Source: a virus (Duplodnaviria; Caudoviricetes). Taken from it: 64,000 bases of DNA. Below, one piece after another: positions 13,201 to 32,762 of this stretch (the stretch's first letter is position 1; every line of letters begins with the position of its first letter). A program made the position numbers and the translations under genes. The stretch is from positions 1-64,000 of the IMG/VR virus record IMGVR_UViG_3300025084_000011; one strand, given 5' to 3'. The notes beneath the pieces are model-generated. The model worked only from the letters and a program-made list of their open reading frames with translations. It was not told the DNA's origin and did not search any database.

Positions 13201-16200
13201 ATATAATGGTACATTTGAGGTTACTGCTCGTCTTGACGACTTTACATTCTCTTATCTGATTCCAGTACCAACAGCGATCGAACCACAAGGTAATATCCTC
13301 CTATCTGTTGACCTAAACAGAGGTAAGTCTACTCAGAGCACGATCAACGAAGTGATCTCTCTGTTTACCTCTAACGTACAGAACTCATTCTTCAATAATG
13401 ACTTTGTTTACGTTGCAGCATCAGGTCTGCCCAACTATAAGGTCGGTCCTTTCAGTGGATCTGCACTTATCCCTGGTAACCAGCGTAAACTGCTGAGATT
13501 CCCTAGAACTGTCAATACAGTTTCAACTAGAACTACGGTATTACCAAATACACCAATTGGTGCATGGGTTAACGGTGTATCTGCATGGGGTTACAAGGAT
13601 CAGGAGTTTGTAACTTTCGGTCCTCTTACTGGTATCGATATTACCAACACTGGCGAAGAGTATGATGCTGGTTCTACACCTACACTAGAAATTACTGGTG
13701 GTGGTGGTTCAGGTGCTGTTGCATCAGTCATTGTTAATGGTTCTTTGAGTACAGTTGATGTACTCACCCAAGGAACTGGATATACTACACAACCTTTGAT
13801 CTCAATTGTTGGTGGTGGTGGTTCAGGTGCTACTGCACAAGCAGTTGTGACAAACGGTCGTGTAACTCGTGTCTTGGTGGGTAACCCTGGTACAGGGTAT
13901 ACATCACAACCTACAATCTCCATCACTGGTGGTGGTGGTTCTGGTGCTACTGCAATTGCACAAGTTCGTGGTGCTATTTCTGGTGTTAACATCCTATCCA
14001 GAGGAACTGGATATACTTCCACACCAACACTGAAACTGAACTCTGGTGAAGGTGCTTTGGCACAACCCATTGTTATCAATGGTCGTATTGTATCTGTTGC
14101 TATCATTAACTCTGGTGATGGGTATACTACTGCTCCTACCGTATACATCAATGGTGATGGTTTCGGTGCTAAGGCAACTGCTGTTATCGGCACCCTTGGT
14201 GAAGACAAAGGTAAGGTTATCTCAGTCAGTATCACCAACAAAGGTGTTGGATATACTCAGGGTAATACTACTGTCCGTATGGAAGCAGTTGGACAACTTG
14301 CAACATTCAATGCAAATGTGTTCCAATGGAATAAGAACTTAGAGTATAACCTCAGCACTAAGTATGACATTGCTCGTGGTTATGTCTTTACTGGATTTAA
14401 CAACCAGTATGGTGGTGAGTATGCACACGTATCTGACCCCAAAGAACTCCGTTATGTGGTTGGCGACAACGTAATCCTTGATCCTGAAACCAATACCTTC
14501 AAAGAAGAAGGTACTGAGACTGGTGCTGCTATTTCTCACTCACCCATTCTGGGTTGGGCGTTTGATGGTAACCCAATCTATGGTCCTTATGGTTATATCG
14601 ATCCTACTGATCAGAACGGTGGTATCAGAAGAATGCGTTCTTCTTACAGACTGAAAACTAATGTAGTTTATGATGTTGATACAAACCCAGAACCTGCTCG
14701 TATTGATGGTCCTGTACTTGCTGACTATCCTGCTGGACAGTTTGTTGATGACTATGAGTATGCATTCCAAGAAGGAGATCTAGACCCATACAACGGTCGT
14801 TTCTGTAAGACACCTGATTATCCTGATGGTACATATTGCTACTTCATCACAATTGATGCATCAGAAGCAGGTCTTCCAGTATTCCCTTACATCATCGGTC
14901 CTGAGTTCAACTCAATTGTTGATACTTGGAACCTGAGTCAGAGTGCAGTACAAGAGAACATCCCTCAGGATGTGTCTCGTTTTAGAGATCCATATGAAGA
15001 AGTTGACATCGACATTGAGCGTCAACCCAACCAACAGTCAGATCAACTGGTTACAGAGAAGGAAGGAGACCTTATCCTTTTTGAAACTTCTGACATAGAT
15101 AATGATGGTATCATTTCTCCTGCTGAGATCGCCACTAATCTGGTGATGACAGAAGAAGCAGCACTTCAAATCTATGATTATTTCCCAAGAGTTTCGACAG
15201 AATCCAGAGTCGATATTGAAGTTGAGACAACAACGAAATTTGAGAATGCTCAGATCGATGGTTTTGTTATTGAAAATTCTGGTGTTTCCTATCAAGTTAA
15301 CGATACACTATTTTTCGACAACACTGGAACGGATGGTTTTGGTGCCTCTGCACAAGTCGAGTCTGTTCAGGGTGCTAGTATCGCAGCATATAGTAAGGAA
15401 GTCATCAACGACATCCCCTACGGCAAAATCACAACATCAACAGACCACGAACTAATTGGACAAGACGAGATCATCGTCAGTTCTAGGGTCATCACTGAGA
15501 ATACCAACAAGAGATTCTACATGTCTGTGGTTACAGGCATTGACTCCATTTTGGTATCACAAACTGGTATTGGTTATAATGAGGCAATTCCACCATCTTA
15601 TGAAATCATTACACCGTCTGGACAAGACGTTGAACTTGATATTGTACTAGATCTTACTACTGGTAAGGTTGATACTGTTAATATCGTCAACTCTGGTTTT
15701 AATTATGATACTGAGAATACTCCTCAGATCAGAGTTTCACACCCACAGAGATTCAAGAAGACTTATTACTGGTCCACTTCATTTGCTGAAAGTGCAGACT
15801 GTAAGTTTGAGATCACTGACTCTGTTGTATCGGCAGAGCGTAACCTGTATATCTGTGGTCAAATCACAAAACCTAATGGTGATTCAGCAGCATTCGTTGC
15901 TAAATTCAACGACCTAGGTAATGTTGTCTGGGATAGAACTTTACTTCCTAGTTCAGCAATCAAGGTGGCACGTTGGAAGAAGATGTATCTGGATGAGACC
16001 AGTGAAGAGAATGATCTCATTTATCTGATTGGTGAAACTGAATCTCAGGGAACTGCAAACCGTAATCCTGATATTTTAGTTGCCAAGTATGAATCTGGTC
16101 TTGATAATGCTAACAATCCAGAAGGCATCGTTAGATGGCAGAAAGAAATTGCTGGTGTATCTGGTTCTACTCGTCGTGACTATGCTGGTGACATCTATCT

Positions 16201-19200
16201 AGATGCAGACCAACGTGTGTACATCTGTGGTTGGACAGACACTAACTCACCTGATCCTGATGACATTTGGATCATTCAACTGAATAGTTTCGGTGATCTG
16301 ATCGAGAAACGTAAGTTTGCTTCGGATTCCGAAGGTGAGCAGATGTATCAACTGCATTTCATCGGTGACAACAAACTTGTCTTTGCTGGTATTGATAAAG
16401 ACAACAATGATCTGCTGTTTGGTGAAATGGAGTACGATGGTGCAAACATCGAATTCACATATGTCAAACGTCTTGCAATTTCTGGTGGTGATGTACAAAA
16501 TCCACAGTTTGTGCTTGATGAGTACGATGATCTGTTCTTTGTATGTGATATGTGGAATGGCACCAAGAATTATGGTGTTGCATTCTTCAAGATTGCAATG
16601 TCACAGATCAAACTGGTGGTTGCAAGTCCAGAATGGCAATTTGCCAAGATTATGGCACCAACAGTCCAATTTGAGTCTGTTAAACATGCTGGCATCACTC
16701 TTGACATCTTTGGCAACGTTAACGTGGTCACAGAGATCAAATATGAAGATAATAACCTGACTGCTAACATTGCAAGTTTCAAATATGATGGAACACTGCT
16801 AAATCAGTCTGATGTTTGGAAGACTGCTAATGATATTGGTTTTACAACACATACTCATGCTGTTGATAACTCTGGTGACATTATTCTGAGTTGCAATACT
16901 CAAAATGCTGATCAAACCATTGTTCATCGCTTTGAGAATGCTGATAACTTGGTTGAAGACTCAACTAAGCAAGAAATTCCTACAATCACAGTATTGAATG
17001 CTGCTAACGCTGCACATGATACTACCGACTATAAGTTTGGTTCTGGATCATTAGATTTCACTGCTCTTAACCGTATTCAGTGGGAAGATCTGAATATCAC
17101 TACTGACTGGACTGTTGGTATGTGGGTTCAGATGGATTCTGCCCATGACAGCAGTAATGCTACTGTTGAGATGATTACAGCAGTTGCTGATACTGGCGGA
17201 ACCGTTCGTTTCACGATTGAAGGTAATTCAGGTCTTGCTAACTACGGTAAGGTTGCATTGCAACTAACTCCTGCTGGTGCTGCCACTACCACAGTATGGT
17301 CTGTTGGTTCTACCTATTGGGCAGCATTATCTGACAACACTTGGCATCATATTGCATTTGTTAAGGAAGAACCTTCCTTGGGTTCATATGTATACTCATG
17401 CTACTTCGATGGCGTCATTGTTGCCACTACAACAACCACTGAGAACATCGTACTGAATGATTTGTATGTTGGTGCTGAGGTTGCATCTCCTGCTACTGCT
17501 AACTGCTTCATTGGTAATATCGATGATCTTATCGTTGATCCTAAGGCAGTATATACTACTGCATCGTTCACACTGCCTACCGAGAGATATAGAATCACTT
17601 CTGCTGACAGTAGCATTGAACTAATCAAGTTTGATAGACTGCATAGCAAGAGAGGTACATATACCCCCACCAGCGCCACCAGAAGCGGCGAGAACCTGCG
17701 TATTGAGGACATTGACTCTGGAACTGCGGGTATCAATGTAAATACGATTTCTAACCCTGTAATCACAATCTGGTCGGTTGGTTCTTCGGGTTTACAGATT
17801 CTTGACTACTCTGATGTAACATCTACACTAGCACCTGGCACTTTCAACTTTGTAACCGATAGATTCACTTACGAGACTAAGACATCTACTATTCCTACTC
17901 CTTTGGGTAGAAAACTGATCCTAGATCCGATTGTCCTTCCAAAATACTATATTAGGGATGCTGGTTATCAGAAGATCGATGCTGTTAAGGAATTTACATT
18001 CAACCAGGATATCAAGTTCGAGAAAGGTTCAATTATCCAACAAACCAATGCTCAGGGTGTTGTCCAAGCATTTGGTACCATTGTTGAGGTCCCAGTCGGC
18101 AGTATTGACGATCCTGGCGTTGGTACTACCTATAAAGTAGGTAAAATCTACGGCAACTTCAATAATACTGATCTGTTCCAAAATGACCTTGGTGAGACTA
18201 ATACTATTGAGGAAATTTCGTTTGAAGTCTCTCGTCCACAAACTGCATGGGAAGCAGGTAAGGCATATGCTGTAAATGACCAAGTTTGGTCAGATGACAA
18301 GATTTACTATGCAACTAACAATGCAACTTCTGGTGTAACCGAACCTACTCATACTATCGGTGCAGTAACCGATGGTGCTGTGGTTTGGCAATTTATTAGC
18401 GATGCTCCAAACATTGAAGTTAATCTTCTGGACTATCCATGGCCTGTGCCAACTGATGCTACCCCTTGGGCAGAAACCAGATCATATCAACTTGATGATA
18501 CTGTATACTTCGGTAGAAACAAATATACCTGTACAGTTGCTGGTACCACTGGTACAACCGCACCAACCCATACATCAGGAACAGCGACGGATAATTCCGT
18601 TACATGGACATACACTAGTACATATGATCCACTTTATAACTATGCTAGGTTCCGTCCTACTAATGTTCTCGATTATAGAGTAACTATTCTGAATACTTTC
18701 AGTGGTTCTGACTTTATTGTTGGAGACGTGGTTTCCCTTGGCAATAGCGTGAATGCTGGTCCTAAGGAAGACACTAATAACAAAATTGCAGAAGTAAGTG
18801 GTCTATCTAGTGTTAAGACTATTCGTGTTACTGTAAACCTGAATAAGGACATTGTTAGAACATCAGAAGCGAATACAGACCTTATCTATTGTTCTGCACT
18901 CTCTCCACACAACTTTAAGACTAATGACATCCTCTTTGTTGAAGGATTTACAACTGCTGAGTTTAACGGTTCATTCTTCGTAAAAGAGGTCTTCTCTTCC
19001 AGAGATTTCACTTACAGAATGAGAGCAATTGCTACTGGCGAACCTGCTTTCCAGCAAAACGCTATTGCAAGAGTTAAGATTGCTTCTAAGCACCCAACCT
19101 TGCTTCTGGTCAGAAATCACTCTTATATCTTTGATATGAGTGATATATCTAACTTTGGGTACTATCTGTCGTTTGCACAAGATAACCAGTTCAAACTGGA

Positions 19201-22200: not shown

Positions 22201-25200
22201 TCAATTCCTTGGTCTGACTTCTGGTGCAAGAGGTGAAGTTGTCAGAATTGACTATGAGGCATCACCACCTATCCTGTACTACCTCAGAAAGACTGAGCAG
22301 AACTTTAACTTAGATCCTAATACTATTGATCCTACTGATGGTGATCAGACAGCAGTTTCTGAAACTGTACAAAAGTATGAAAATGATGTTAATGGTAATG
22401 AAGTTTTAGATTCCTTAACTGAGACTCTTCTTGGAGAAGCAAGGATTGGTGATGTGGTTGACACTCTGGTCATTAACAGAGGTTCTACATTCTTCGGTAT
22501 GATCTTCGAGCGTTTGATCTCTCTGACTAATCAGAACCAAATCCTTGATGATGTTTCTAAGACTACTATCACCCCTGTTGAAATTCTTGACAGTTCTGAT
22601 CGTATTAACGCTGACTTCCTTGACTTTGAAGAAGTTCGTTCTACTGAAATCGAATATGAAGATCTCACTGGCGGCACATTAGCAGTTGGCGATAAACTTC
22701 GTTCTATCCAAGTAACATATGGCAACCCAGTAACAGATTCCCTCAACAGATGGAAAGATGCTGGTCGTATGATCGAGTTCAACAGACAGGAGATCGTTGA
22801 CTTTGCTAATGCTGAGATTTCTGTTGAGCACCCTGCGTTCTACTATCCTGGTGACAACCAGACAGATCAGTTCAGCAGATTTGCAGATTCTTATCGTCTG
22901 ATTGCTAAGAACAAAGAATACATCATCGCTAAGTCTTATGCAGACATGGTTGTTGAGTATCCTCTTCTGACCATACCTTCTTCTACCAAGTGTAAGAGAG
23001 ATATTGGTAAGTATATTGACGCACTATCCATGGACATGTTCCAAGGTGGTACTGTTTATACACGTAAACTTCTCCAATCCTATTTCAGTACAGATGGTCT
23101 GACCTTCCTGTATATTGACGGTGAAGAGCAAGCAACTGAATATGCGTTTGAGCAAGCACTCAACTATATGAAGGATGCTCTCACTAACATGCTCACAGGT
23201 AGTGAGGTTGTTGATGGTGTAACTTATGTCAAGTATGACGAGAGATCTAGTGGTGGATCTAGTGGCACTGGTATCACTGCTGACCCATCACCTGGTAATA
23301 ATTATGGTACTGCTGGTTCCAATGCTATAAACTATGGTGCTACAAATTGTTCTGATGTGCAGTCAGCACTCACAACTCTCTTTACTAACGTATCCGAAGT
23401 TCTGCTTGCAGGTTCACTATCTGATCTGATCGATCTGTCAGAACCCAATACATACAGTGCAAACGAGACTAAGTGTCGTCGTGACATCGGTCTGATGGTC
23501 GATGCTCTCGCTGCTGATATTGCAGGTGATGGTAACTATCAGATTGTCGAATTTACTAAGAAATACTTCGATAACGCTGGAACACCTATCAGCAATGGTC
23601 TGGTTGGTGAAGTTGCTGAATCTCTTACTGCATTCAGAAAAGCAGGCGAAATGTGCCGTAAGGCAATCAACAACCTTCTCTATGTTCAGGTCAATACCAG
23701 AACTGCTGAGACTGGTTATATGCTGAAAGATCCGACCACATATGCTGGTCCATATCTTGGTTCTTCGGGAACTGAACTGACTGAGTTTGATGTATCTAAT
23801 GCTGCCTATGTGTCTGGCAGTGGCATCATGACGTTGACGATCGGTTCACACTCACTGACAACCAGCGACAGCATTACGATCAGACCTTACTCTTTACGTT
23901 TCACATGTAGTTCTGATAGTAATGCAACCTTCCACGATTACCCACGTACTGGCGATCCTGCATTCAATACACCCCTGACTATCGATGCTGTAACTGCTAC
24001 AACCATTGAAGTTAACGTTGGTGCATCACCTGCTGGACAACAGTACGCTCACACCTTCATCAGTGCTATCGATAACGCTGTATTCCAAGGTGGCGGTGGT
24101 GCTGCTGCATACTACGATCCTAACTACTACTCTGGTAGAAACGAAAGTATCCAACATTGTGCTGACGTTCAGGCAGGTATCCATACTCTGGTCGAACTGG
24201 CAGCAACTGCTATCGGCGCTGGTAGTCTCACTAGCATCAACAGTCTGGCAGTTGTCAGTGATGGTTCTTATCAGATCAACGAAAACCTACGTGTTTACAA
24301 ACTATCCTACAAAGATCCTGGTGGAAATGGATTCTTCATCCCTGGTGATGTAATCAAAGGTGCAACATCTGGTGCAACATTCTTAGCGAAGGGTGCAAAC
24401 TCTGGTTTGAAGTGGTTGTATACCAATTCAGTTACTGGCACTTTCCAAGACAGAGAGATTCTTTCTAACACCAAATTGACTAGCAGCAATGCAGTCTTGA
24501 CTGGGTTGATTAAGAAGTCTGGTTCTAAGTCTTTGAGACTTGATGCTGGTGGTTATCTGTCACATGAACTGAGCGAAGTTCAGAAGTTTGGAACTGATGA
24601 TTTTACAATCGAGATGTGGATCAGACCTACAACTCTGTCTGGTTTGCAGTATCTCTGGGATACTCGCACCAGTGGTGCTGCTGAGGTTGGATCTCCTGTT
24701 CTATATCTGAATGGTAGTAACATCTCTTGGTACCTGAACGGTAGTGATCAAATCTCAGGTGCTCACAACTTAGGCACTGACGCTTGGCATCATATTGCTG
24801 TCAGCAGAACAACAAACATCACCAAACTTTGGGTGAATGGTACACAAGTTGGCGGCGACTTCACTGATAACACTAACTATCTGGAACGTGCATTCAAGAT
24901 CGGTGCTGACTTAACAAATGCTAATGGATTTGTCGGTTGGATTGACAACATCATTATTAAGAAGGGTGTTTCAGACTATACTGCAACCTTTACACCTGGT
25001 TCTACCTATCCTACTACTACTAATGACATCTCGTTCGGTATGAGTATGGAACTGCCTCTGATCATGAGTGATCAGGAAAGATATGGCGTGTATACTGGTC
25101 AAACTAACTCTTCTGCAACTGCTAAGAGTATTGACTTTGATAATAAGCAGTTCATCATTGAAGATATTAACCTCGCACGCGATGAGCATCGTAAGTGTGC

Positions 25201-28200
25201 AGATCTTATCGAACTTAACTACGACTGGATCGCACAGGTTGCTATCGGTTTGATGAAGGAGAAGTATTCCGACTTCCTCATCCCTGGCGATACTCTTGAT
25301 GGAGTTGGAACACAGCAAGGTACTAACAAGTGCTTGCGTGACACCAAAGAATACATCTTGAAAGCAATCGTAGAAGACATTAAGTATGGTGGTAACTATA
25401 ACAGCGTCATCGCTGGTAGAGGTTATCTGACTAAGGATGGTGGTCTAAATTATGTGGGTAATGAACTCCTACAATCTATCTACACTTGGACAGAACTTGC
25501 TAATGTTGTTAATTATGTAATTACTACTACTAGTGGTGATCTTGAAACCTATAACGGTACTAAGTATACTGAACTTCTTCGGATTCCTAACAACTTTACA
25601 TCACCTGCATCTACCGCTGTAACTGACGAGATCACTGCTCTTTCTAATACTATTGCAGATATCATCGGACCTACTGGTGATAGATTCCGTGATGCAGGCG
25701 ATATGATCTGGAAGAACCGTAGTTACATTGCAGAAGAAACTGTTGGTTACTTGCAGGCAAACTACATTAAGGAAATCAATGGCACTACTTACGATTTCCT
25801 GACAATGCCTGGTTATGGCGACTCCTACTGTGAGCGCGATATCAAGCAACACATTCTGCCTGCTGTTGTTACTGACTTGATCACTGGTGGCAACTCTGCT
25901 ACCCAGTATGTGATTGATCAGTACATCAATGTCAACGATCAGATCATTCACATTGAGAATGAACTTGGTCCAATGTTGGATGCCTTCACCTTCATTAAGA
26001 AGTTGGTACATCATGCAGTTAACAACACTCTTCTAAGCAAGGGTACGACTGCTGCTGAGTTCAGTGTTGATTTTGAATATCAAGATGATTACTATATTGC
26101 ACAATGGACCGATCTTCCTGCATACAAAGATAACACTCTAATCATTGATAGTAAGGGTTATGAAGGTGGTAACAGTTCTGATGTCAACAAGAATCTTGAT
26201 GTTGCTGATCTGATTGAAGCAAACAAGCATGTAATCGCAAGAGAAGCGGTTTACACGATGAACGATATGTCCAAGTATTTGGATCTTGCCGTTCCTGGTG
26301 GTGCTCAAAATTGTATTGATGATGTGATTGACGTTCTTGATGCTGTGATCCATGACATGAGATTCGGTGGCAACTCCAAGACTTGGGACGCTGCTGCACT
26401 CTACCTGAATGAAGAAGATGACAGTTTGAAGCACATCGAAGGTGAAGTTGACGCTTCGATCGATGTATATAAGATTGCTGCTGAGATCTGCATCCTAACG
26501 ATGCGTAATGGTTTCGGTCGCGACAACCTGTATATCTACCAAGAAGATGGTGGTGTGGATCCTGTCACTGGTCAACCAATCAGTGGCGGTTCTTCTCTCG
26601 ATTCTGTTGATGTCAGCACTTATGAAAGAAATGGTGCTGATGACCGTTTCGTTGATGCTGGAAATGTCATTGATAGAAACATCCGCTTGATTGCTGAGGA
26701 AGCAGTTGCACAGGGTCTTGCCCAATATCCTTCACTAACTATCAACGGATCTGGTGGCAGTGGTGGTGTCAAGAAAACTCCTACTTCTGCAACATATAAC
26801 CAGGCAAATGGTGATATGACACTGACAGTTGTTGGTCATGGACTTTCTACTTCTGATAGAGTAACCATCAAACCTGGTAGCATCGTCTTCACATGTACCA
26901 GTAATGCTAACGCTACTGAACATGCATACCCAAGACAAAGCGACCCCGCGTATAACACATCATTAGCCATTAGTGCTGCTACAACGGACACATTCACCGT
27001 GAACGTTGGCGCTGCTGCTGCTGAGTACCAATATGCACACACATTCGTTTCTGCTCAGCAAGACGCTGTGGTGACTAACGGTTACATTGACTGTGTTCAT
27101 GACGTGACTGACGTTCTGTCTGCCATGGTATGGAACTTGAAGTATGGTGGTAACAATAAGGTCTTCAAGTCTGCTGAACTGTATGTCTCTGGTAGTAACC
27201 TACAACATATCGTAGGTGTTTCTACTGAGTCTATCTGGATTCTGAACAAAGCAAGAGATCTTGCAATTCAGGCAATGAGAGATGAGACCATCACGATCAC
27301 TGCTGCTCATGGATTCTCTCAGAAGACATACACAGATCTAGATTACTTCCCTTACAGCGAGGGTGGTTATGCGATCACAGTCGATACTGACTCACCTAAG
27401 TGTGCAGACGTTGCTTCGGCAATCACCTCTATGATGTCGATTGTTACTGACACAATCACTACGCCTGCAAGTATCGAAGACGGTACAATCACTAAGACTC
27501 TGCCATTCATCTGGCCTGTCAAGTATTCACCCGAATATGTCCAACGTGACGTGTCGGTTACGTATGAAGATGGTTCAGATTGGAATCAAGTTTGTGCTAC
27601 TCAGGCAACAAATATTGAGACTTTGTTCGATATTGTTATCGATACAATCAGCACAGCAAATGCTGGTAATGCAAGTTACCTCAATGGTGTTACTCGTGAT
27701 ACAGGATACAATGCCAACACAGATTATCAGTATTACACATGCTACAACGTCACCTCAGCATCTGACACTCTCTTTGAGTTGATGGAAGAGACACTTGGTG
27801 GTGGTAGTAAGTCTGATAAGGCAGTTGCACGTCGCATCTTGTGGAACAAGCACGCAGTTTCCCTGAAAGCATTCTCCGAAGTTCAAACAGCATATCCAGC
27901 AACTCTTGCCGAACAGTCGTTTGGTGATGCATTGCTTGATGGTCTGCTTTATGACCTGAATACTGGTGGTAACATCGGTATCCTGAGAATCGTGAATACT
28001 TGGTTTGATGGTGAGGGCAACTTCATCGCATTCCCCGATGTCACTAAGCAACATCTTCTCTGGTATGTAACTCGCATCAGTGAGTATGCCAAGCGTATTC
28101 TGGATGACTACAATGACAACCTGGTTGGTGGTGAGTGGTATGGATATGACATCTACTTAGATGAGACTCATATCAACACTGGCGCTATCGAGCATAGATT

Positions 28201-31141
28201 TGAATATGAGCAAGAATCTACTCAGTTTAAGATTGATAGTTCTCTCAATGCTGCATACTTTGCTATCAGCAGAGGTACACCTCCTGCACAAAACAGTGTT
28301 CAGTGGACCAATAATGTTCATGCTAATAATGCACAGAATCTATATGACGAAGGTAATGATTGGAACACTGATCCTGATCTGATCATCAACACACCTACTG
28401 TTGAAGTTGGTTTTGAAAGAAGAGAGAACAGAATTATTATTCAACGTCCTAACTTCTACTCACGCGGTGATATTCTGCAATATGCAATTGCATCTGCTGA
28501 TGTTGAATCTGCTTTCGCTAATCAAGATTACTTCTATGTTCTCAATGCAACACCAACGCAATTTGAGATCACAAGAGAAATCAGACATGATGCAAGATTC
28601 TCTCGCTTCGCAGTTGACACAAGAACTTCTGGGCAGCAGCAACTGCAAAGTCCCGTAAGATCTGGTCTTGTACGTCAATCAACTACATACGGCACAAGAG
28701 ATATCGACAACCCTGTCAGTGGTGGTTTTAACCTCGCAGACGTGGTTGTGGGCACTACATCTACTGCAAGTTCTGAGATTGTTCGGAACAAGAATAACTC
28801 TGCTGACATCATCAAACTGTATTACAGGTACACCATCAGACTTGCCACTGGCAGGTTCACAGTTGGTGAGCAAGTACAAGTTCAAGGTGGTGGTGCCAAC
28901 AACGGTATCGTCATGCAGACCTCAGTCCTCACGGGCGATAATGAGGATGAAGGTTGGGTGTACATCGAGAATATCACGGGTACGCTTAGCAGCACTCAGG
29001 TGCTCGAAGGTGTGGACAGTGGAATCACAGCAGAACTCAGCAGTGACGGCACAACTCGCATGTTGATCAATACTGATCGTGGTGGGTTTACTAACGGTGA
29101 GATTATCTTCAACAAAGATAACGGCGCTGAGGCAACCATTGTTTCCTTCGAGAACTCTGCTGGTATCTTGACTGGTAACAGCGGTGGTCGTATCACGATC
29201 GATATCGAAACTCTGCAAGATGACTTCACTGACGGTGACATCATTTACGGTTCTATCACTGACAAGATTCTTGACATTGGTAAGATCAGCAAAGAAGGAT
29301 TCAGAGACATTGAACTTAATCAGTTCGTACACGCGGTTAAGACGATCGAGTGTGATGTCAACAGCGTCCTGAGAGATCAAGGTTTCGAGGGTGACTTCAA
29401 GAGAGGTGATATTGTTTATCTCCTTTCAGGTGGTGTACCTAAGGTTCCTGGTTGGACTGCTCTCGTTACAGATTATGTGTACGAGGAAGGCGTTCAGCAT
29501 AAGATCTGGATCGCGAACTTGACACCATTTGGCGCTGCTGCTGATGGCACTACAACCACAGATCCTCAGGAACTAATAGGCGGTGGATTAGGTAGATTTG
29601 AAAACCTCAATAACTTCCCAATCATCTCCTGTGATATTACTACGGTTACTGAGACCAACTACACGTCCTACGGTAAGGTTTCTGGCAAGTCAATTAGTGG
29701 CGATACAGGTCGCCTATGGTTGGAAGATGTTAATGGTGATTTCCCATCAAACTTGACAATCAGATCCGACTATGGATGGTCTGCTGGTGTTACCCAAGCG
29801 AAGAATCTCTTGGGTCGCTGCGATAGGTTCTTCCGTGGATTCGATGGCATTGCTGATACCTTCAAACTGACGGTTAGCAATGGTGAAGCATACTTCCCAG
29901 ATCCCGCTGGTCACCTACTCGTCTTTGTTAATGGTGTTATGCAACCTCCTGGTGCTAACTTCGCATACACTGCATTCTCTGACCAGATCACGTTCACTGA
30001 ACCACCTACCATTGGATCTGAATTCATTGGTTACTACGTGGGTAAACTGAGACAACTGGATGATATCTCGTTTGAGTTTGACTCCTTGCGCTCGTCCTTC
30101 AACCTGAAATATCAGGGTGGATTCTACTCACTGACGCTGACTGAGGGCGTTTCGTCTAACACGATTCTTCCAGAAAACAACATCATCGTCTCGCTCAATG
30201 GTGTTATTCAGGAAGCAGGTATTGGTTATGAACTGGTTGGTTCTAGAATCATCTTCGCTGAGATTCCTCGTGCAGGATCGACATTCGTTGCCTTCTCTTA
30301 CATCGGTTCCGACGCTGACGTTATCGCAGCAACTGTCGTGCCACCGATCGAAGCAGGCGATGTTCTACAAATCGAAGGTGAAGCAGACGAACGTGAAGTT
30401 GCTCTGATTGAGTCTTCCAACTCACTGATCACCTTCGAGTACACAGGCACAGTTAAGGGTCGTGGTGCTACCGCTCTTGCATCAATCAAGTCTGGTGAAA
30501 TCACTAAGGCAATTATCACCGCACCTGGTGATGGTTACTCCTCGCGCCCGAACGTGGATGTGGTTTCCTCCACTGGTTTTGACGGTCGTGTTCGTGCCCT
30601 AATGGGTCTATTGAGAATTGATGTCAAGACTCCTGGTATTGATTATCAGCAACCAATTGTTGATGTTCAGACTACCGTCGAAGATGATTTTGTTGCTCCT
30701 AGTGGACCTGCTGTTAACCAAGGTTTCGACACCTACGCTGGTGAGGGCACTGACGCTCAGGGCAACCCAATCGTCATCATCCCTGGTTATATCAACGTCG
30801 CATCACAACCTGTGAACGTGACAGTGAACCAAGGTCAGACTGCATCCTTCACCATTGTCGCTCAGTTCATCAACAGTTCTGACAATCAGATTGGATCTAC
30901 TGCTCTGAACTATCAGTGGCAGCGTAAGCAGTATGGCGAAACTAACTGGTCGAACATCACTGGTTCTACCAGTGCCACATACACATCATTGACTGCCGAA
31001 CAAGCAGATGATGGTGATGAGTTCCGTGTTGCAGTTACTGCTGCTGGTGCTACACCAATCTACTCCAACTCTGTGATCCTCACAGTACAGACTGGTGCAA
31101 CTGTTGTTAACAACTTCAACCCGACTCAGATTTTTCAATAA
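10217..31141 (+). CDS. gp7: Giant baseplate wedge initiator gp7 / multidomain virion protein (6974 aa)
   Basis: N-terminus ISDRVANQLPEFI and KIKDFYLSKGT motifs, and position between gp6 and gp8. Contains many GxGYxxxP repeats, a YHYH-like segment, a beta-propeller-like region, two LamG-like domains, two CBM5/12-like repeats, helical repeats and a C-terminal Ig-like domain. Confidence 0.88.
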   Translation: MFAKTINISDRVANQLPEFIRNEDEQLVNFLIEYYKSQEKTGRPYNVLNNLIKYLDLDEYDQKILTSSTSLIKEVGIYDEVIEVEQIDGFLPSKGSVMIDNEIIYYDETVRGPDAILTPGISLEEFNKKRQALESPWELFDGARTTFPLKFLGTPVSAVSADHLAVTIYGDLLIPQVDYTVSGSEITLTVPPRARTGNDQVELTQILYYVGFADSVIKDLVIPDVNDLVGLDSTTMEYDSLPYSPIAEIGLIINRNAVLQRPYLDYVLTDNNTKIKFFVNISNQDTFHIRSIEYVSPTVGSGASAVTRVGASGEIDKIIIKDGGKGYQLNFAPKLSIYSSTGVGEASAGRTLVNGIKDSQLIRGGQGYTSYNPPVLKITPPSDLINGSQATAEITVDDDTGMVSSIEITNSGSGYDFIPAITFLNPDGAEISSPEIDSEGRLVPASIAVTQGGIGYSNPPEIYIDAAPDGGINAAATCTVAPNGQIVSVTITNRGRGYLTPPRARVIQPVGAQVLDITVANGNVTNINLLTGGKGYLDAPSVYIVDDRKGPLNEPIGGTGAEAVATIFNGEITDINIVNFGTGYSDTEPPKVYIASPASAQASCDVGFGEVTGFTILSAGRKYEPSALTGCARGVSDVATFDNYANQIYAKESQLTQSSHPAESVVNNLDSMIIKQVFDKFRRQYMPTINLDYSQVNPVLVIKKIKDFYLSKGTKKATQYLFKILFGEEIDVYYPRDEMITPSAASWVVDTILRAELISGDPANLKDSQLVQIADEVDQNIKDASVLIENVISIIEGTDIIYELAISEETLNGEFKIPYKTVLVEPLDTTGGIITVDSTIGWPEKNGTIIIDDNEIVQYKDKSLNQFIECTRSKNGVVEDWDPGTIIHSDIFVYANRGQETEVQLRILGIAEAGTTVLEDSGSYYLPGDKLNVAALGSTDQDERLQSWLYNVKKLIKVSQIIPGGLNRTATVTCENPHGLLVEDTVTIYGANPAVYNGTFEVTARLDDFTFSYLIPVPTAIEPQGNILLSVDLNRGKSTQSTINEVISLFTSNVQNSFFNNDFVYVAASGLPNYKVGPFSGSALIPGNQRKLLRFPRTVNTVSTRTTVLPNTPIGAWVNGVSAWGYKDQEFVTFGPLTGIDITNTGEEYDAGSTPTLEITGGGGSGAVASVIVNGSLSTVDVLTQGTGYTTQPLISIVGGGGSGATAQAVVTNGRVTRVLVGNPGTGYTSQPTISITGGGGSGATAIAQVRGAISGVNILSRGTGYTSTPTLKLNSGEGALAQPIVINGRIVSVAIINSGDGYTTAPTVYINGDGFGAKATAVIGTLGEDKGKVISVSITNKGVGYTQGNTTVRMEAVGQLATFNANVFQWNKNLEYNLSTKYDIARGYVFTGFNNQYGGEYAHVSDPKELRYVVGDNVILDPETNTFKEEGTETGAAISHSPILGWAFDGNPIYGPYGYIDPTDQNGGIRRMRSSYRLKTNVVYDVDTNPEPARIDGPVLADYPAGQFVDDYEYAFQEGDLDPYNGRFCKTPDYPDGTYCYFITIDASEAGLPVFPYIIGPEFNSIVDTWNLSQSAVQENIPQDVSRFRDPYEEVDIDIERQPNQQSDQLVTEKEGDLILFETSDIDNDGIISPAEIATNLVMTEEAALQIYDYFPRVSTESRVDIEVETTTKFENAQIDGFVIENSGVSYQVNDTLFFDNTGTDGFGASAQVESVQGASIAAYSKEVINDIPYGKITTSTDHELIGQDEIIVSSRVITENTNKRFYMSVVTGIDSILVSQTGIGYNEAIPPSYEIITPSGQDVELDIVLDLTTGKVDTVNIVNSGFNYDTENTPQIRVSHPQRFKKTYYWSTSFAESADCKFEITDSVVSAERNLYICGQITKPNGDSAAFVAKFNDLGNVVWDRTLLPSSAIKVARWKKMYLDETSEENDLIYLIGETESQGTANRNPDILVAKYESGLDNANNPEGIVRWQKEIAGVSGSTRRDYAGDIYLDADQRVYICGWTDTNSPDPDDIWIIQLNSFGDLIEKRKFASDSEGEQMYQLHFIGDNKLVFAGIDKDNNDLLFGEMEYDGANIEFTYVKRLAISGGDVQNPQFVLDEYDDLFFVCDMWNGTKNYGVAFFKIAMSQIKLVVASPEWQFAKIMAPTVQFESVKHAGITLDIFGNVNVVTEIKYEDNNLTANIASFKYDGTLLNQSDVWKTANDIGFTTHTHAVDNSGDIILSCNTQNADQTIVHRFENADNLVEDSTKQEIPTITVLNAANAAHDTTDYKFGSGSLDFTALNRIQWEDLNITTDWTVGMWVQMDSAHDSSNATVEMITAVADTGGTVRFTIEGNSGLANYGKVALQLTPAGAATTTVWSVGSTYWAALSDNTWHHIAFVKEEPSLGSYVYSCYFDGVIVATTTTTENIVLNDLYVGAEVASPATANCFIGNIDDLIVDPKAVYTTASFTLPTERYRITSADSSIELIKFDRLHSKRGTYTPTSATRSGENLRIEDIDSGTAGINVNTISNPVITIWSVGSSGLQILDYSDVTSTLAPGTFNFVTDRFTYETKTSTIPTPLGRKLILDPIVLPKYYIRDAGYQKIDAVKEFTFNQDIKFEKGSIIQQTNAQGVVQAFGTIVEVPVGSIDDPGVGTTYKVGKIYGNFNNTDLFQNDLGETNTIEEISFEVSRPQTAWEAGKAYAVNDQVWSDDKIYYATNNATSGVTEPTHTIGAVTDGAVVWQFISDAPNIEVNLLDYPWPVPTDATPWAETRSYQLDDTVYFGRNKYTCTVAGTTGTTAPTHTSGTATDNSVTWTYTSTYDPLYNYARFRPTNVLDYRVTILNTFSGSDFIVGDVVSLGNSVNAGPKEDTNNKIAEVSGLSSVKTIRVTVNLNKDIVRTSEANTDLIYCSALSPHNFKTNDILFVEGFTTAEFNGSFFVKEVFSSRDFTYRMRAIATGEPAFQQNAIARVKIASKHPTLLLVRNHSYIFDMSDISNFGYYLSFAQDNQFKLEYSFNVIEREGTPGLSSATETPVVKFTIGGEVTNITYYFDPSRTTDTSPVGENSFIDVIKTPFDGRFQISEVISDTEFRFPLLTEPEFTNAEIGLNDRDVPNTIYSTTSTKAIGPINSIRLISPGGFYKKLPIISDIASDRKIEKLRITAAGTEYAPGVYTQISIDGDGEGALCNITVELDAETGSGAISDVALTDPGKGYTFATIDIDGIPGILGATLAGSGGAIEVVIPDEGTGAAVFLTGTQIGKIKTLKNNEFGYGYSHDYTLRPEIAFPINLQLFNTSILSQIKITNPGAGYTSAPAVLISGGGGVNAEAEAVVKNNRLSEILIKNPGSGYSSQPIVTLKSEFTYVVNLDLNYLQFNFPHGITTGAEVQFRADNIGSTEGILPKPSSVGLTSLSASQTYYAIAGDANGLESDQLRFGLTPVDAESGNFITFLTQGDGRQVLLTEVFGGQAEAVVETSRFLEGEQVFQGETFETATAFGIVSENDGWQIQPKILKVTNPDGDFVVGGKVQGIISRASGVIDNLNIAKGVLNIDAITKTAGRFTDDVGKPSEIVQKIQDSFFYQNFSYVIKSQIPINKWKNQILENNHPVGFSMFGQLELTGGKDISGRKVAADFTKQVNINEYTNVNEITSFGAAQPIYSTFNNSEVLFRKKRLTNSEEILTSIVKKIDSISSQFDGVTKAFPITVEGNQVIVNENQLLVTLNGVIQSPGNAYNVVGGSIVFSEAPRPDSKVVYRNISFDIMPITRLNLNTIAGIFPSIGDTVNGFTTQTTARVVATGATSIDVVDIGSGTGTFDLNERVDVGRTGFSALIGSIDKSFTKLFLQSIGGTFGTILIGDIVTGQTTGARATVTSIDLTDQSIQVTDMSNGYFDRGEDIQFFAAGYGANILNVDSVNYKTIFEFGESLTGLDNDTAIVEETNLDLDGNVSDKLVLSKTSGTAEYETGAYNLLLNDIFYSASSNIAGRITQISPYRDPITSINIERPSTVTGEWASFQEGDQFLGLTSGARGEVVRIDYEASPPILYYLRKTEQNFNLDPNTIDPTDGDQTAVSETVQKYENDVNGNEVLDSLTETLLGEARIGDVVDTLVINRGSTFFGMIFERLISLTNQNQILDDVSKTTITPVEILDSSDRINADFLDFEEVRSTEIEYEDLTGGTLAVGDKLRSIQVTYGNPVTDSLNRWKDAGRMIEFNRQEIVDFANAEISVEHPAFYYPGDNQTDQFSRFADSYRLIAKNKEYIIAKSYADMVVEYPLLTIPSSTKCKRDIGKYIDALSMDMFQGGTVYTRKLLQSYFSTDGLTFLYIDGEEQATEYAFEQALNYMKDALTNMLTGSEVVDGVTYVKYDERSSGGSSGTGITADPSPGNNYGTAGSNAINYGATNCSDVQSALTTLFTNVSEVLLAGSLSDLIDLSEPNTYSANETKCRRDIGLMVDALAADIAGDGNYQIVEFTKKYFDNAGTPISNGLVGEVAESLTAFRKAGEMCRKAINNLLYVQVNTRTAETGYMLKDPTTYAGPYLGSSGTELTEFDVSNAAYVSGSGIMTLTIGSHSLTTSDSITIRPYSLRFTCSSDSNATFHDYPRTGDPAFNTPLTIDAVTATTIEVNVGASPAGQQYAHTFISAIDNAVFQGGGGAAAYYDPNYYSGRNESIQHCADVQAGIHTLVELAATAIGAGSLTSINSLAVVSDGSYQINENLRVYKLSYKDPGGNGFFIPGDVIKGATSGATFLAKGANSGLKWLYTNSVTGTFQDREILSNTKLTSSNAVLTGLIKKSGSKSLRLDAGGYLSHELSEVQKFGTDDFTIEMWIRPTTLSGLQYLWDTRTSGAAEVGSPVLYLNGSNISWYLNGSDQISGAHNLGTDAWHHIAVSRTTNITKLWVNGTQVGGDFTDNTNYLERAFKIGADLTNANGFVGWIDNIIIKKGVSDYTATFTPGSTYPTTTNDISFGMSMELPLIMSDQERYGVYTGQTNSSATAKSIDFDNKQFIIEDINLARDEHRKCADLIELNYDWIAQVAIGLMKEKYSDFLIPGDTLDGVGTQQGTNKCLRDTKEYILKAIVEDIKYGGNYNSVIAGRGYLTKDGGLNYVGNELLQSIYTWTELANVVNYVITTTSGDLETYNGTKYTELLRIPNNFTSPASTAVTDEITALSNTIADIIGPTGDRFRDAGDMIWKNRSYIAEETVGYLQANYIKEINGTTYDFLTMPGYGDSYCERDIKQHILPAVVTDLITGGNSATQYVIDQYINVNDQIIHIENELGPMLDAFTFIKKLVHHAVNNTLLSKGTTAAEFSVDFEYQDDYYIAQWTDLPAYKDNTLIIDSKGYEGGNSSDVNKNLDVADLIEANKHVIAREAVYTMNDMSKYLDLAVPGGAQNCIDDVIDVLDAVIHDMRFGGNSKTWDAAALYLNEEDDSLKHIEGEVDASIDVYKIAAEICILTMRNGFGRDNLYIYQEDGGVDPVTGQPISGGSSLDSVDVSTYERNGADDRFVDAGNVIDRNIRLIAEEAVAQGLAQYPSLTINGSGGSGGVKKTPTSATYNQANGDMTLTVVGHGLSTSDRVTIKPGSIVFTCTSNANATEHAYPRQSDPAYNTSLAISAATTDTFTVNVGAAAAEYQYAHTFVSAQQDAVVTNGYIDCVHDVTDVLSAMVWNLKYGGNNKVFKSAELYVSGSNLQHIVGVSTESIWILNKARDLAIQAMRDETITITAAHGFSQKTYTDLDYFPYSEGGYAITVDTDSPKCADVASAITSMMSIVTDTITTPASIEDGTITKTLPFIWPVKYSPEYVQRDVSVTYEDGSDWNQVCATQATNIETLFDIVIDTISTANAGNASYLNGVTRDTGYNANTDYQYYTCYNVTSASDTLFELMEETLGGGSKSDKAVARRILWNKHAVSLKAFSEVQTAYPATLAEQSFGDALLDGLLYDLNTGGNIGILRIVNTWFDGEGNFIAFPDVTKQHLLWYVTRISEYAKRILDDYNDNLVGGEWYGYDIYLDETHINTGAIEHRFEYEQESTQFKIDSSLNAAYFAISRGTPPAQNSVQWTNNVHANNAQNLYDEGNDWNTDPDLIINTPTVEVGFERRENRIIIQRPNFYSRGDILQYAIASADVESAFANQDYFYVLNATPTQFEITREIRHDARFSRFAVDTRTSGQQQLQSPVRSGLVRQSTTYGTRDIDNPVSGGFNLADVVVGTTSTASSEIVRNKNNSADIIKLYYRYTIRLATGRFTVGEQVQVQGGGANNGIVMQTSVLTGDNEDEGWVYIENITGTLSSTQVLEGVDSGITAELSSDGTTRMLINTDRGGFTNGEIIFNKDNGAEATIVSFENSAGILTGNSGGRITIDIETLQDDFTDGDIIYGSITDKILDIGKISKEGFRDIELNQFVHAVKTIECDVNSVLRDQGFEGDFKRGDIVYLLSGGVPKVPGWTALVTDYVYEEGVQHKIWIANLTPFGAAADGTTTTDPQELIGGGLGRFENLNNFPIISCDITTVTETNYTSYGKVSGKSISGDTGRLWLEDVNGDFPSNLTIRSDYGWSAGVTQAKNLLGRCDRFFRGFDGIADTFKLTVSNGEAYFPDPAGHLLVFVNGVMQPPGANFAYTAFSDQITFTEPPTIGSEFIGYYVGKLRQLDDISFEFDSLRSSFNLKYQGGFYSLTLTEGVSSNTILPENNIIVSLNGVIQEAGIGYELVGSRIIFAEIPRAGSTFVAFSYIGSDADVIAATVVPPIEAGDVLQIEGEADEREVALIESSNSLITFEYTGTVKGRGATALASIKSGEITKAIITAPGDGYSSRPNVDVVSSTGFDGRVRALMGLLRIDVKTPGIDYQQPIVDVQTTVEDDFVAPSGPAVNQGFDTYAGEGTDAQGNPIVIIPGYINVASQPVNVTVNQGQTASFTIVAQFINSSDNQIGSTALNYQWQRKQYGETNWSNITGSTSATYTSLTAEQADDGDEFRVAVTAAGATPIYSNSVILTVQTGATVVNNFNPTQIFQ
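22748..28270 (+). repeat. About seven phycobiliprotein-like helical repeat units inside gp7
   Basis: Recurring R-F-x-D-A-x3-I-x2-N-x3-I-x3-A-x8-P, C-x-R/D/H-D-x14/15-GG and C-x2-V-x3-I/L-x2-L-F motifs. Confidence 0.7.
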
Positions 31142-31157: not shown

Positions 31158-32762
31158 ATGACAGCAACCGCTGAATTTAACGCTGGCACTAGGATAATTA
31201 CCGTAGATGCGGATGGGTTACCAACCCCCGTAGAATACGGTACATTTCCTAATGTAAATAATCCGAATAGCGTCACTGAGCAAGCATTTGATCATGACTT
31301 CTATTATAGAGGTGGCACCTTTGGTGTAACTAGACAATTGGATTCCAATGTCTATGTACATGAAGGGTTTTTTATTAGTGTTGCATTGTCAGTTGCTGAT
31401 AACTCTTTATTGGGTAATCAGATTCAAGTTGGTGACAGAATTCTTTTTCTGTTTGATGAAGGCACACCAGAAGAAGAGAAGTTAGTATTTACATATAGAG
31501 GGACAGAACAAACTGCAATCCCTGGTGAATTTTGGAGAGAGACTGATCAGAATTTACAACTGGTCATGGAGTATACAGCGACTGGTCGTTCTGGTACATA
31601 TAGTTATTATGATCAAAGAAATGGCAGGGTCAATACACCCTTAGGTGCTATTGGTATTGCTGCTAATGGAGTAGTTTTCTTCAATCCTTCTGCTGGTGCT
31701 GGCGGAAACCCACCAGTTAATTTCAGTTGGAATGCACACTTCCCAAGTTCACCAGTAACATTTGGTGAAGACAGTTGTGGTGGTCATCCAGAAAACACTG
31801 GTCAGTATCACTATCATGATACTGAGTTTTTGGAGTGTTGGAAGAATGGTGCCGCCATGGCATCTTACAATGATTACTATGGTTCTTCTCAGTATAATGG
31901 TGACAATCTAAGACACCCAGATGGGCATTCTAAAATCTTAGGATATGCATTTGATGGATTTCCTATCTACGGTCCATACCTTTATAGTAATAGTTGGAAT
32001 GTTAATTCTAATGTCACAACTGCTACCAGTTCGTATCGTGTCAGATCAGAAGAGGTAGAAAACAGACCAATATATGGTGACTCTCAGCAGAACCCCCCTG
32101 CTGGATCCTTGATGGAAGATTGGGAATATGCAGAAGGTCTGGGTAATTTAGATAGACATAATGGTAGATTTTGCATCACTCCTGAATTTCAGAGTGGTAC
32201 ATATGCATATTTCTTATCTACTGAGGTAGATAGTGAGAACAATCTACAACCAGTATTCCCATATCTTATGGGTCTAACTTCTCGTGAACTTATAGATCAA
32301 CCACCAAACAATGGCGCTGCAACACCTCCTGCACCTCCTACTGGTGGTGGTGAGGAAGCACCTCCTGCTGTCATTCAAATTGCTTTGCAACCTGCAAATG
32401 CAACTTATAATGTCAATCAGACTGTCACATTCTCGATCACTGCTGCCATCAGTCCAGAAGATGGACCTAAGGCATATCAGTGGTTTAGATCTACTGATGG
32501 TGGATTCTCGTTTGCTGTGTTGACTGGTGCAACTAATTCAACATATACATTTACAGCATTGAACTACATGTCTGGATATAAATTCAGATGTGAAGTACGT
32601 GGTCCTTTGGGTCTAGGTGTGACCCCTGCACAAAACTCACCTCTAACGTCAGACGTTGCAACTCTGACTGTGACTGGTTTCGGTGATGGTCAAGGTGATG
32701 CCGACTTCTCATCTACGGATGCTAAGTTCAGCACTACCAGCATCTCCTTCGACGCAACATAA
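31158..32762 (+). CDS. YHYH-domain virion protein with a C-terminal Ig-like domain
   Basis: IGIAANGVVFFNP, GGHP..GQYHYH, GHSKILGYAFDGFPIYGPY and LDRHNGRF motifs; Ig-like segment LQPANAT...YQWFRS...YKFRCEV. Confidence 0.85.
   Translation: MTATAEFNAGTRIITVDADGLPTPVEYGTFPNVNNPNSVTEQAFDHDFYYRGGTFGVTRQLDSNVYVHEGFFISVALSVADNSLLGNQIQVGDRILFLFDEGTPEEEKLVFTYRGTEQTAIPGEFWRETDQNLQLVMEYTATGRSGTYSYYDQRNGRVNTPLGAIGIAANGVVFFNPSAGAGGNPPVNFSWNAHFPSSPVTFGEDSCGGHPENTGQYHYHDTEFLECWKNGAAMASYNDYYGSSQYNGDNLRHPDGHSKILGYAFDGFPIYGPYLYSNSWNVNSNVTTATSSYRVRSEEVENRPIYGDSQQNPPAGSLMEDWEYAEGLGNLDRHNGRFCITPEFQSGTYAYFLSTEVDSENNLQPVFPYLMGLTSRELIDQPPNNGAATPPAPPTGGGEEAPPAVIQIALQPANATYNVNQTVTFSITAAISPEDGPKAYQWFRSTDGGFSFAVLTGATNSTYTFTALNYMSGYKFRCEVRGPLGLGVTPAQNSPLTSDVATLTVTGFGDGQGDADFSSTDAKFSTTSISFDAT

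Follow-up and report, generated by a model that had tools for sequence, protein, structure and literature searches.

Tandem phycobiliprotein-like globin domains with conserved putative bilin sites in a gp7-like baseplate protein of a cyanophage

Phycobiliprotein alpha and beta chains (PF00502; CpcA/B, CpeA/B, and ApcA/B) share a globin-type fold with helices A/B, E, F, G, and H, and carry on helix E a Cys-x-Arg-Asp motif that is followed 18-19 residues later by Gly-Gly. They are free subunits of 160-175 residues, in which an X-Y hairpin builds the alpha-beta monomer, and they form (alpha-beta)3 discs and rods. In ApcE, the core-membrane linker, one phycobiliprotein-like domain with an insertion in its B-E loop lies within a large multidomain protein of the host phycobilisome core; ApcE attaches its bilin without a lyase, its cysteine is at a different position, and insertions in the G-H and B-E loops occur in phycobiliprotein beta chains as well as in ApcE. 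Photocobilins and globin-coupled sensors are cellular signalling proteins with globin-like sensing domains, to which photocobilins bind a bilin. Among cyanomyoviruses, giant gp7 fusions have been known since 2005 (P-SSM2 orf113 and P-SSM4 orf080), and phycobiliprotein-like domains are not mentioned in their published description (PMC1079782). Here we describe a gp7-like protein of this kind, encoded in a 64,000-nucleotide stretch (the window) of the IMG/VR virus record IMGVR_UViG_3300025084_000011, whose C-terminal third contains a tandem array of phycobiliprotein-homologous globin-fold domains with helices A/B, E, F, G, and H and without the X-Y hairpin.

The phage units resemble phycobiliproteins both in this fold and in the helix E motif, the Cys-x-Arg-Asp and the Gly-Gly 18-19 residues later being in register, and some of them, like beta chains, have a Cys just before helix H, which we take to be the place of the second beta-chain bilin. 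They differ from phycobiliproteins in being tandem domains of a 6,974-residue virion protein, in lacking the hairpin, and in having (i) additional conserved residues (Asn17, Asp58, Asn64, and Tyr74 in unit 1 numbering) and (ii) beta-domain loop inserts. Unit 6 has, like ApcE, an insertion in its B-E loop; ApcE contains one phycobiliprotein-like domain and the phage baseplate protein seven. The protein as a whole is like T4 gp7 and the giant cyanomyovirus fusions in that it follows gp6, probably has an N-terminal wedge-like part, is very large, and presumably forms a baseplate-attached fibre. In contrast to the photocobilins and globin-coupled sensors, with which they have no detectable sequence relationship, the units are parts of a virion.

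A preliminary description of the window, made from its letters without database searches, had reported about seven such units at 22748-28270, marked by three recurring motifs (A/B, E, and H) and repeated inside a single baseplate protein. The repetition within one protein was borne out, because all 18 motif coordinates fall in frame 1 of a single open reading frame (ORF; 10217-31141, + strand; 6,974 residues). A search of the six frames of the window with a profile of the unit matched seven complete units and a partial one, all of them within this ORF at residues 4177-6036. The features concerned are as follows.

10217-31141, + strand: giant ORF of 6,974 residues, a gp7-like "baseplate wedge initiator" fused to fibre-like domains
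22745-22858, + strand: unit 0, partial, with the A/B helix pair only (residues 4177-4213); profile positions 2-39, E 0.016
22862-23422, + strand: unit 1, a complete globin domain (residues 4216-4402); profile E 1.6e-45
23423-24232, + strand: unit 2 (residues 4403-4672), without A/B helices of its own; E-site Cys4420 within C-R-R-D
25178-25675, + strand: unit 3 (residues 4988-5153); E-site Cys5039 within C-L-R-D; profile E 1.1e-46
25676-26182, + strand: unit 4 (residues 5154-5322); E-site Cys5205 within C-E-R-D, the sole Cys of the unit; profile E 2.6e-51
26183-26641, + strand: unit 5 (residues 5323-5475); E-site Cys5366 within C-I-D-D; profile E 1.1e-46
26642-27499, + strand: unit 6, split into A/B helices (26642-26749) and helices E to H (27068-27499); profile E 1.4e-7 and 4e-24
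27593-27805, + strand: two lone helices, each starting with a Cys (Cys5793 and Cys5842), between units 6 and 7
27809-28327, + strand: unit 7, degenerate (residues 5865-6036), with Cys/Arg/Asp replaced by Ala/Gln/Ser; profile E 3e-43

The predicted number of about seven units was right for the full copies, while the last of them runs on to about 28327. Pairwise identity among the units is 15-31% over ~110 residues, and 16 of the 36 Cys residues of the giant ORF lie inside the 1,860-residue repeat region (0.86%, as against 0.39% outside it). The boundaries of the units are fixed by a distant relative, P0110 (locus L047), which has 17 regular units with a period of ~161 residues and no extra helix pair; each of its units has five conserved helical segments, which we read as A/B, E, F, G, and H after modelling unit 1. 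In unit 1, the E-site Cys4259 (22991-22993) lies within C-K-R-D and helix H is capped by Cys4378 (23348-23350). Two units of the window are interrupted by a beta-domain: unit 2 in its G-H loop (23774-24082), with Cys4648 (24158-24160) capping helix H, and unit 6 in its B-E loop (~105 residues, about 26750-27067), with its E-site Cys5626 within C-V-H-D and Cys5729 capping helix H. The counterpart of unit 6 in three relatives (L010, L014, and L017) has no such interruption, which suggests that the insert acts as an independent mobile module. This beta-rich domain of ~100 residues is found in 330 cyanophage records, among them the gp7 of S-SSM7, a phage without phycobiliprotein-like units.

The sequence relationship to phycobiliproteins emerges from profiles, which were needed because single-sequence searches yielded little. 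Against the sequences of solved structures, a single-sequence search with units 3-5 gave no match, and unit 1 alone gave only three weak matches, all to C-phycocyanin alpha chains (E 0.6-0.8); the identity of the units to phycobiliproteins is only ~15%. Pfam PF00502 scored 27.4 bits (E 3.8e-6) on the C-terminal half of the protein; this score, summed from several units, passes the 22.2-bit cut-off, which no single unit reached (best 20.2 bits). When only the seven window units were used to build a profile, its 60 best matches among all solved-structure sequences were phycobiliproteins or engineered derivatives of them (best E 2.6e-5). With close relatives included (48 units), the best E-value was 1.1e-6, and with distant arrays added (83 units) it was 1.4e-5, all 31 matches at E ≤0.01 being phycocyanin or phycoerythrin alpha chains, the closest relatives by sequence. 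The aligned core pairs unit positions 5-63 with phycobiliprotein residues 36-104 and places Cys, Arg, Asp, and Gly-Gly in register. Moreover, 16 of 48 single units matched PF00502, as compared with five for the next commonest family. The profile test thus favours the preliminary description on this point, since the C-terminal half passes the family cut-off on its summed score and profiles made of units alone retrieve phycobiliproteins almost exclusively.

To compare folds, AlphaFold models of units 3 and 1 were matched with 48,161 representative chains without a prefilter, and phycobiliproteins were the best matches of both, other globins coming next at Z 10-11 or lower. The unit 1 model (predicted local distance difference test score, pLDDT, 83.3; predicted template modelling score 0.83) has the globin-type helices A, B, E, F, G, and H, and was closest to the phycoerythrin beta chain 5aqd_M (VIA Z 15.6; root-mean-square deviation 2.4 Å over 145 residues), model residues 1-182 corresponding to chain residues 29-184 with helix H included. 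ApcE, allophycocyanin, and ApcB followed at Z 12.3-13.9 (ApcE at Z 13.9, with a deviation of 2.0 Å over 117 residues), and the top eight matches were all phycobiliproteins or ApcE. The unit 3 model (pLDDT 73.5) reached its best VIA Z, 11.5, with allophycocyanin and phycoerythrin. With helix H included, beta chains are thus the closest by structure. Since the alignments start at phycobiliprotein residues 29-38, the N-terminal X-Y hairpin is absent from the phage units. Among the Foldseek matches listed (to rank 49), all the top-ranked ones were phycobiliprotein beta chains at probability 1.00; Foldseek E-values never reached 1e-3, and we put weight on the uniform match lists and on the VIA Z scores.

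Two rival explanations bear on these comparisons. The first is that an unrelated helical repeat has come to share short motifs with phycobiliproteins by chance or convergence, as could be argued from the sub-threshold Pfam scores of single units, from Foldseek E-values that stay above 1e-3, and from the frequency of middling Z scores among helical folds. We consider this very improbable, since three independent profiles, with zero composition bias, retrieve almost solely phycobiliproteins at E 1e-5 to 1e-6, since the order of ~58 columns is preserved and the functional residues coincide, and since the best fold matches span the whole domain at 3-5 Z units above other globins. The second is that the globin-like pocket has a different ligand or acts as a redox sensor, its Cys ligating heme or a metal or serving as a redox switch, as in globin-coupled or stressosome sensors. 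Other globin-like proteins scored Z 10.8 or below against unit 1, and the next-best structural matches were indeed globin-coupled sensors, RsbR-type domains, and photocobilins (Z 9.9-10.8; photocobilins 9.9-10.0). However, the sequence profiles match phycobiliproteins only and no heme globin, the conserved triad is the bilin triad, and no His is found among the best-conserved columns, which together make this explanation improbable. That the units are homologous to phycobiliproteins and share their globin fold is, in our judgement, almost certain.

The structural alignment of unit 1 also bears on the H motif, which the preliminary description had likened to the phycobiliprotein sequence around beta-153-158. 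The last helix of the model (residues 164-183) aligns with phycobiliprotein helix H, and Cys4378 directly precedes it; the beta-153/158 bilin Cys presumably sits at this same place before helix H, the correspondence being one of helices rather than of residues. The assignment of the motif to helix H holds at the helix level. Of the five H motifs reported, those of Cys4378, Cys4648, and Cys5729 cap helix H of units 1, 2, and 6, while those of Cys5793 and Cys5842 are the two lone helices, which are helix-H-like, belong to no recognisable unit, and gave no match to the unit profile. Two other assignments were dropped. The unit's long fifth helix was taken as phycobiliprotein helix H from HMMER alignments of insignificant score (-1.6 to 4.1 bits), and the structural alignment makes it helix G; and the H motif was taken as a Cys-bearing variant of the A helix (unit 3 starts K-C-A-D), an idea given up in view of the unit 1 model.

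Among the seven window units, the E-site Cys (the alpha-84/beta-82 equivalent) and its Asp are present in six, and the Arg is present in four. Across 83 units with a mean identity of 20%, counts that are inflated by orthologous copies, the Cys84 and Asp87 equivalents are each found in 76 (92%) and the Arg86 equivalent in 57; the Cys and Asp columns are among the five best conserved. The triad tends to be lost jointly: of the seven units without the Cys, none has the Arg and five lack the Asp. In 22 units, including window unit 4, the E-site Cys is the sole Cys, so that an intra-unit disulfide does not explain its conservation. A Cys directly before helix H is found in 22 of the 83 units, including window units 1, 2, and 6. 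Phages of Prochlorococcus also keep the E site (6/8 units in P-TIM40 and 2/3 in P-RSM4). As judged from these alignments, the predicted pigment-attachment site is under selection, and six of the seven units may be covalent bilin-binding sites, to which we give an even chance.

The same data bear on a further possibility, namely that the units are a pigment-free structural module, in which descendants of phycobiliproteins act as rigid helical blocks that lengthen or stiffen a fibre and the Cys-x-Arg-Asp motif serves folding or inter-unit contacts. The units stand among purely structural modules (Laminin_G, YHYH, and the beta inserts) in a virion protein; they are present in 3 to 34 copies, a variability also seen in fibre repeats; unit 7 does without the triad; and the X-Y hairpin is gone. 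Yet a vestigial site should decay at 20% identity, whereas here Cys and Asp each persist in 92% of the units and disappear jointly, and a lone free Cys in 22 units would be unusual in an extracellular protein. We regard a pigment-free module as a serious possibility that falls somewhat short of an even chance.

In the survey, the units are confined to cyanophages and the Cys is conserved: tblastn with units 3-5 found 363 phage records, all of them cyanophages except one named only "Marine". Matches of the whole region to phages of Pseudomonas, Vibrio, and other non-cyanophages were set aside, as they vanish with queries of the units only or of the beta insert only and probably stem from the Laminin_G part. 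Of 22 complete cyanomyovirus genomes, 18 have units, and P-SSM2, S-SM2, S-SSM7, and S-CRM01 have none. The P-SSM2 genome gave no unit by profile, even in its giant gp7-like gene, which makes the units an optional module. In some phages they occur in two or three different giant genes. A search of 1.84 billion representative proteins gave 1,332 matches at E ≤0.001, the richest of which has 34 units (the related proteins range from 3 to 34), and the window protein shares its unit-by-unit residue pattern with that of P-TIM40. Most likely, an early cyanomyovirus acquired a host antenna gene, which later underwent duplication; the profile tests, the fold tests, and the survey support the earlier proposal that a phage took the host antenna globin fold into a virion protein. 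As to its novelty, our literature searches found no paper describing phycobiliprotein-like domains in cyanophage baseplate proteins, but most homologues, those of S-WAM1 and S-SZBM1 among them, already carry PF00502 in precomputed Pfam annotation, where it stands unremarked in the databases.

A link to bilin chemistry is suggested by the bilin lyase gene cpeT, which co-occurs with the units in all 18 unit-bearing complete genomes, both being missing in the four others. The CpeT Pfam match was obtained in 15 of the 18 at the first threshold, and in the other three once two stretches of a 145-149-residue ORF were summed; no CpeT candidate appeared in the four unit-free genomes in the first search, and P-SSM2 and S-SM2 still had none at E 10. 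In S-PM2, Syn1, and S-RSM4, a second unit-bearing giant fibre gene, itself followed by gp12, is preceded on its own strand by cpeT at a distance of 1.0-1.5 kb; two metagenome contigs (L044 and L045) have the same arrangement at 0.4-0.5 kb; and in a third (L049) heme oxygenase and cpeT are found 4.3 kb upstream of a 22-unit protein. On a pigment-free module, the co-occurrence could be explained by shared descent, while the repeated adjacency, once with heme oxygenase too, would be left unexplained.

Several further observations concern these cpeT loci. In S-PM2 (L039 4808-5389) and in Syn1 (L040 4573-5145), a 2OG-Fe(II) oxygenase gene separates cpeT from the second unit-bearing giant gene, and in contig L045 (1105-1752) such a gene lies just upstream of cpeT; its product might modify the same unit-bearing protein. 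A short, divergent form of CpeT is found in many cyanomyoviruses at a conserved position of about 13-20 kb. In the P-SSM4 record AY940168.2, a 148-residue ORF (16642-17064) matches the CpeT profile at E 2.4e-10, which is at odds with a 2010 review listing P-SSM4 as lacking cpeT. The S-PM2 record AJ630128.1 (L039 8057-12884) has 16 tRNA features annotated inside the S-PM2p218 coding sequence, the frame of which is open there, and this looks like an error of annotation coordinates.

Adsorption in some cyanomyoviruses depends on light. In darkness, P-SSM2 adsorbs but P-HM1 and P-HM2 do not (PMC6628666), and the adsorption of S-PM2 is light-dependent and independent of host photosynthesis (PMC6628666; PMC2984593). 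To account for this, it has been suggested that receptors of the host or tail fibres of the phage are sensitive to light (PMC6628666). The unit profile matched six times in P-HM1, six times in P-HM2, 10 times in S-PM2, and not at all in P-SSM2, an agreement of unit counts with adsorption pattern that fits a photoreceptor in the virion. We propose that a bilin of host or phage origin would be attached, while virions are being assembled in the infected cell, by a thioether bond to the conserved Cys of helix E, where the neighbouring Asp and Arg would hold it as in phycocyanin. The T-type lyase CpeT of the phage may help, chiefly at the helix-H-capping Cys of units 1, 2, and 6, and each copy of the baseplate protein in the virion would carry several pigments. 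More speculatively, these pigments could act as a light sensor that gates deployment of the baseplate or the fibres, which would explain why some cyanomyoviruses adsorb only in light. Light-gated adsorption through virion pigments is, taken by itself, unlikely on what we have. The complete proposal, in which bilins are bound to the virion domain arrays, cpeT encodes a virion-maturation lyase instead of a booster of host light harvesting, and the array is a photoreceptor for adsorption, has in our estimate a probability of roughly one in four.

A number of points weigh against this proposal. We know of no report of coloured cyanophage particles, the Arg86 equivalent is retained in only 69% of the units, and the correlation with light-dependent adsorption covers three lineages only. 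A portal-protein tree groups the three marine phages without units in a single clade (support 98/97), with S-CRM01 as a long-branched outlier. One or two events are therefore enough to produce the co-occurrence of units and cpeT, which has little weight as statistics; a Fisher test of 18/18 against 0/4 (1 in 7,315) was rejected as evidence on this ground. Similarly, S-PM2, Syn1, and S-RSM4 belong to one clade of that tree, and the synteny thus gives few independent cases. P-SSM2 has ho1 and pebA (pebS) without units or cpeT, which indicates that bilin synthesis by phages does not go hand in hand with the units. The site served by T-type lyases is that of the beta-153 type (PMC10452541), where a Cys is found in only the 22 units noted above, and the E site would thus need host lyases or self-attachment. 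Further, cpeT was not found in the window's own record, although this is an 83.5-kb fragment that is only 45% complete, which makes its absence uninformative.

The genes around the array place it in a baseplate module. Two further features of the window are as follows.

7867-10209, + strand: gp6 baseplate wedge gene, directly upstream of the giant ORF (Pfam Gp6-like_1st, E 5.2e-17; Gp6_C-III; Gp6_C-I)
24569-24952, + strand: Laminin_G_3 (concanavalin-like) domain between units 2 and 3 (Pfam PF13385, E 2.2e-13)

Judged by gene order after gp6, the giant ORF occupies the gp7 slot of a T4-type baseplate module, and genes for a YHYH protein, a gp9/10-like protein, and gp8 lie 3' of it. The closest isolates are S-WAM1 and S-SZBM1, whose homologues are annotated as baseplate wedge initiator, and the giant ORF itself has a weak match to Pfam Baseplate_wedge PF23786 (19.8 bits against a 27-bit cut-off; E 5.8e-4; residues 700-739). 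The S-SZBM1 orthologue (6,619 residues) was represented by 71 peptides in a purified-particle proteome (PMC9146016). The N-terminal part of the giant ORF (window 10217-14500 approximately, residues 300-1400) contains many short repeats of ~40-45 residues with G-G-x-G-Y or N-x-G-x-G-Y, for which no Pfam family was found. A YHYH domain lies within the giant ORF (14405-14860, residues 1397-1548) and recurs in the separate 534-residue protein just downstream (31158-32762). Two more giant structural genes are present in the window, at 37690-45120 (2,476 residues, DUF4815) and at 45670-52587 (2,305 residues, Mtd_N domain), and neither contains phycobiliprotein-like units.

The array shows clearly how a host antenna fold has been put to new use in building a virion. 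In reviews, the benefit has been considered unclear of cpeT, and sometimes of bilin-synthesis genes, to cyanomyoviruses of Prochlorococcus, which lacks phycobilisomes (PMC2984593; PMC3037559). A phage structural protein with many conserved predicted bilin sites is a candidate substrate for CpeT as well as a candidate light sensor, and it makes testable (i) why many cyanomyoviruses carry cpeT, (ii) how the adsorption of S-PM2 and of P-HM1 and P-HM2 needs light without host photosynthesis, and (iii) whether a virus particle carries pigment and senses light. If the pigmented photoreceptor proposal were true, the array would be the first light-sensing organ described on a virus particle.

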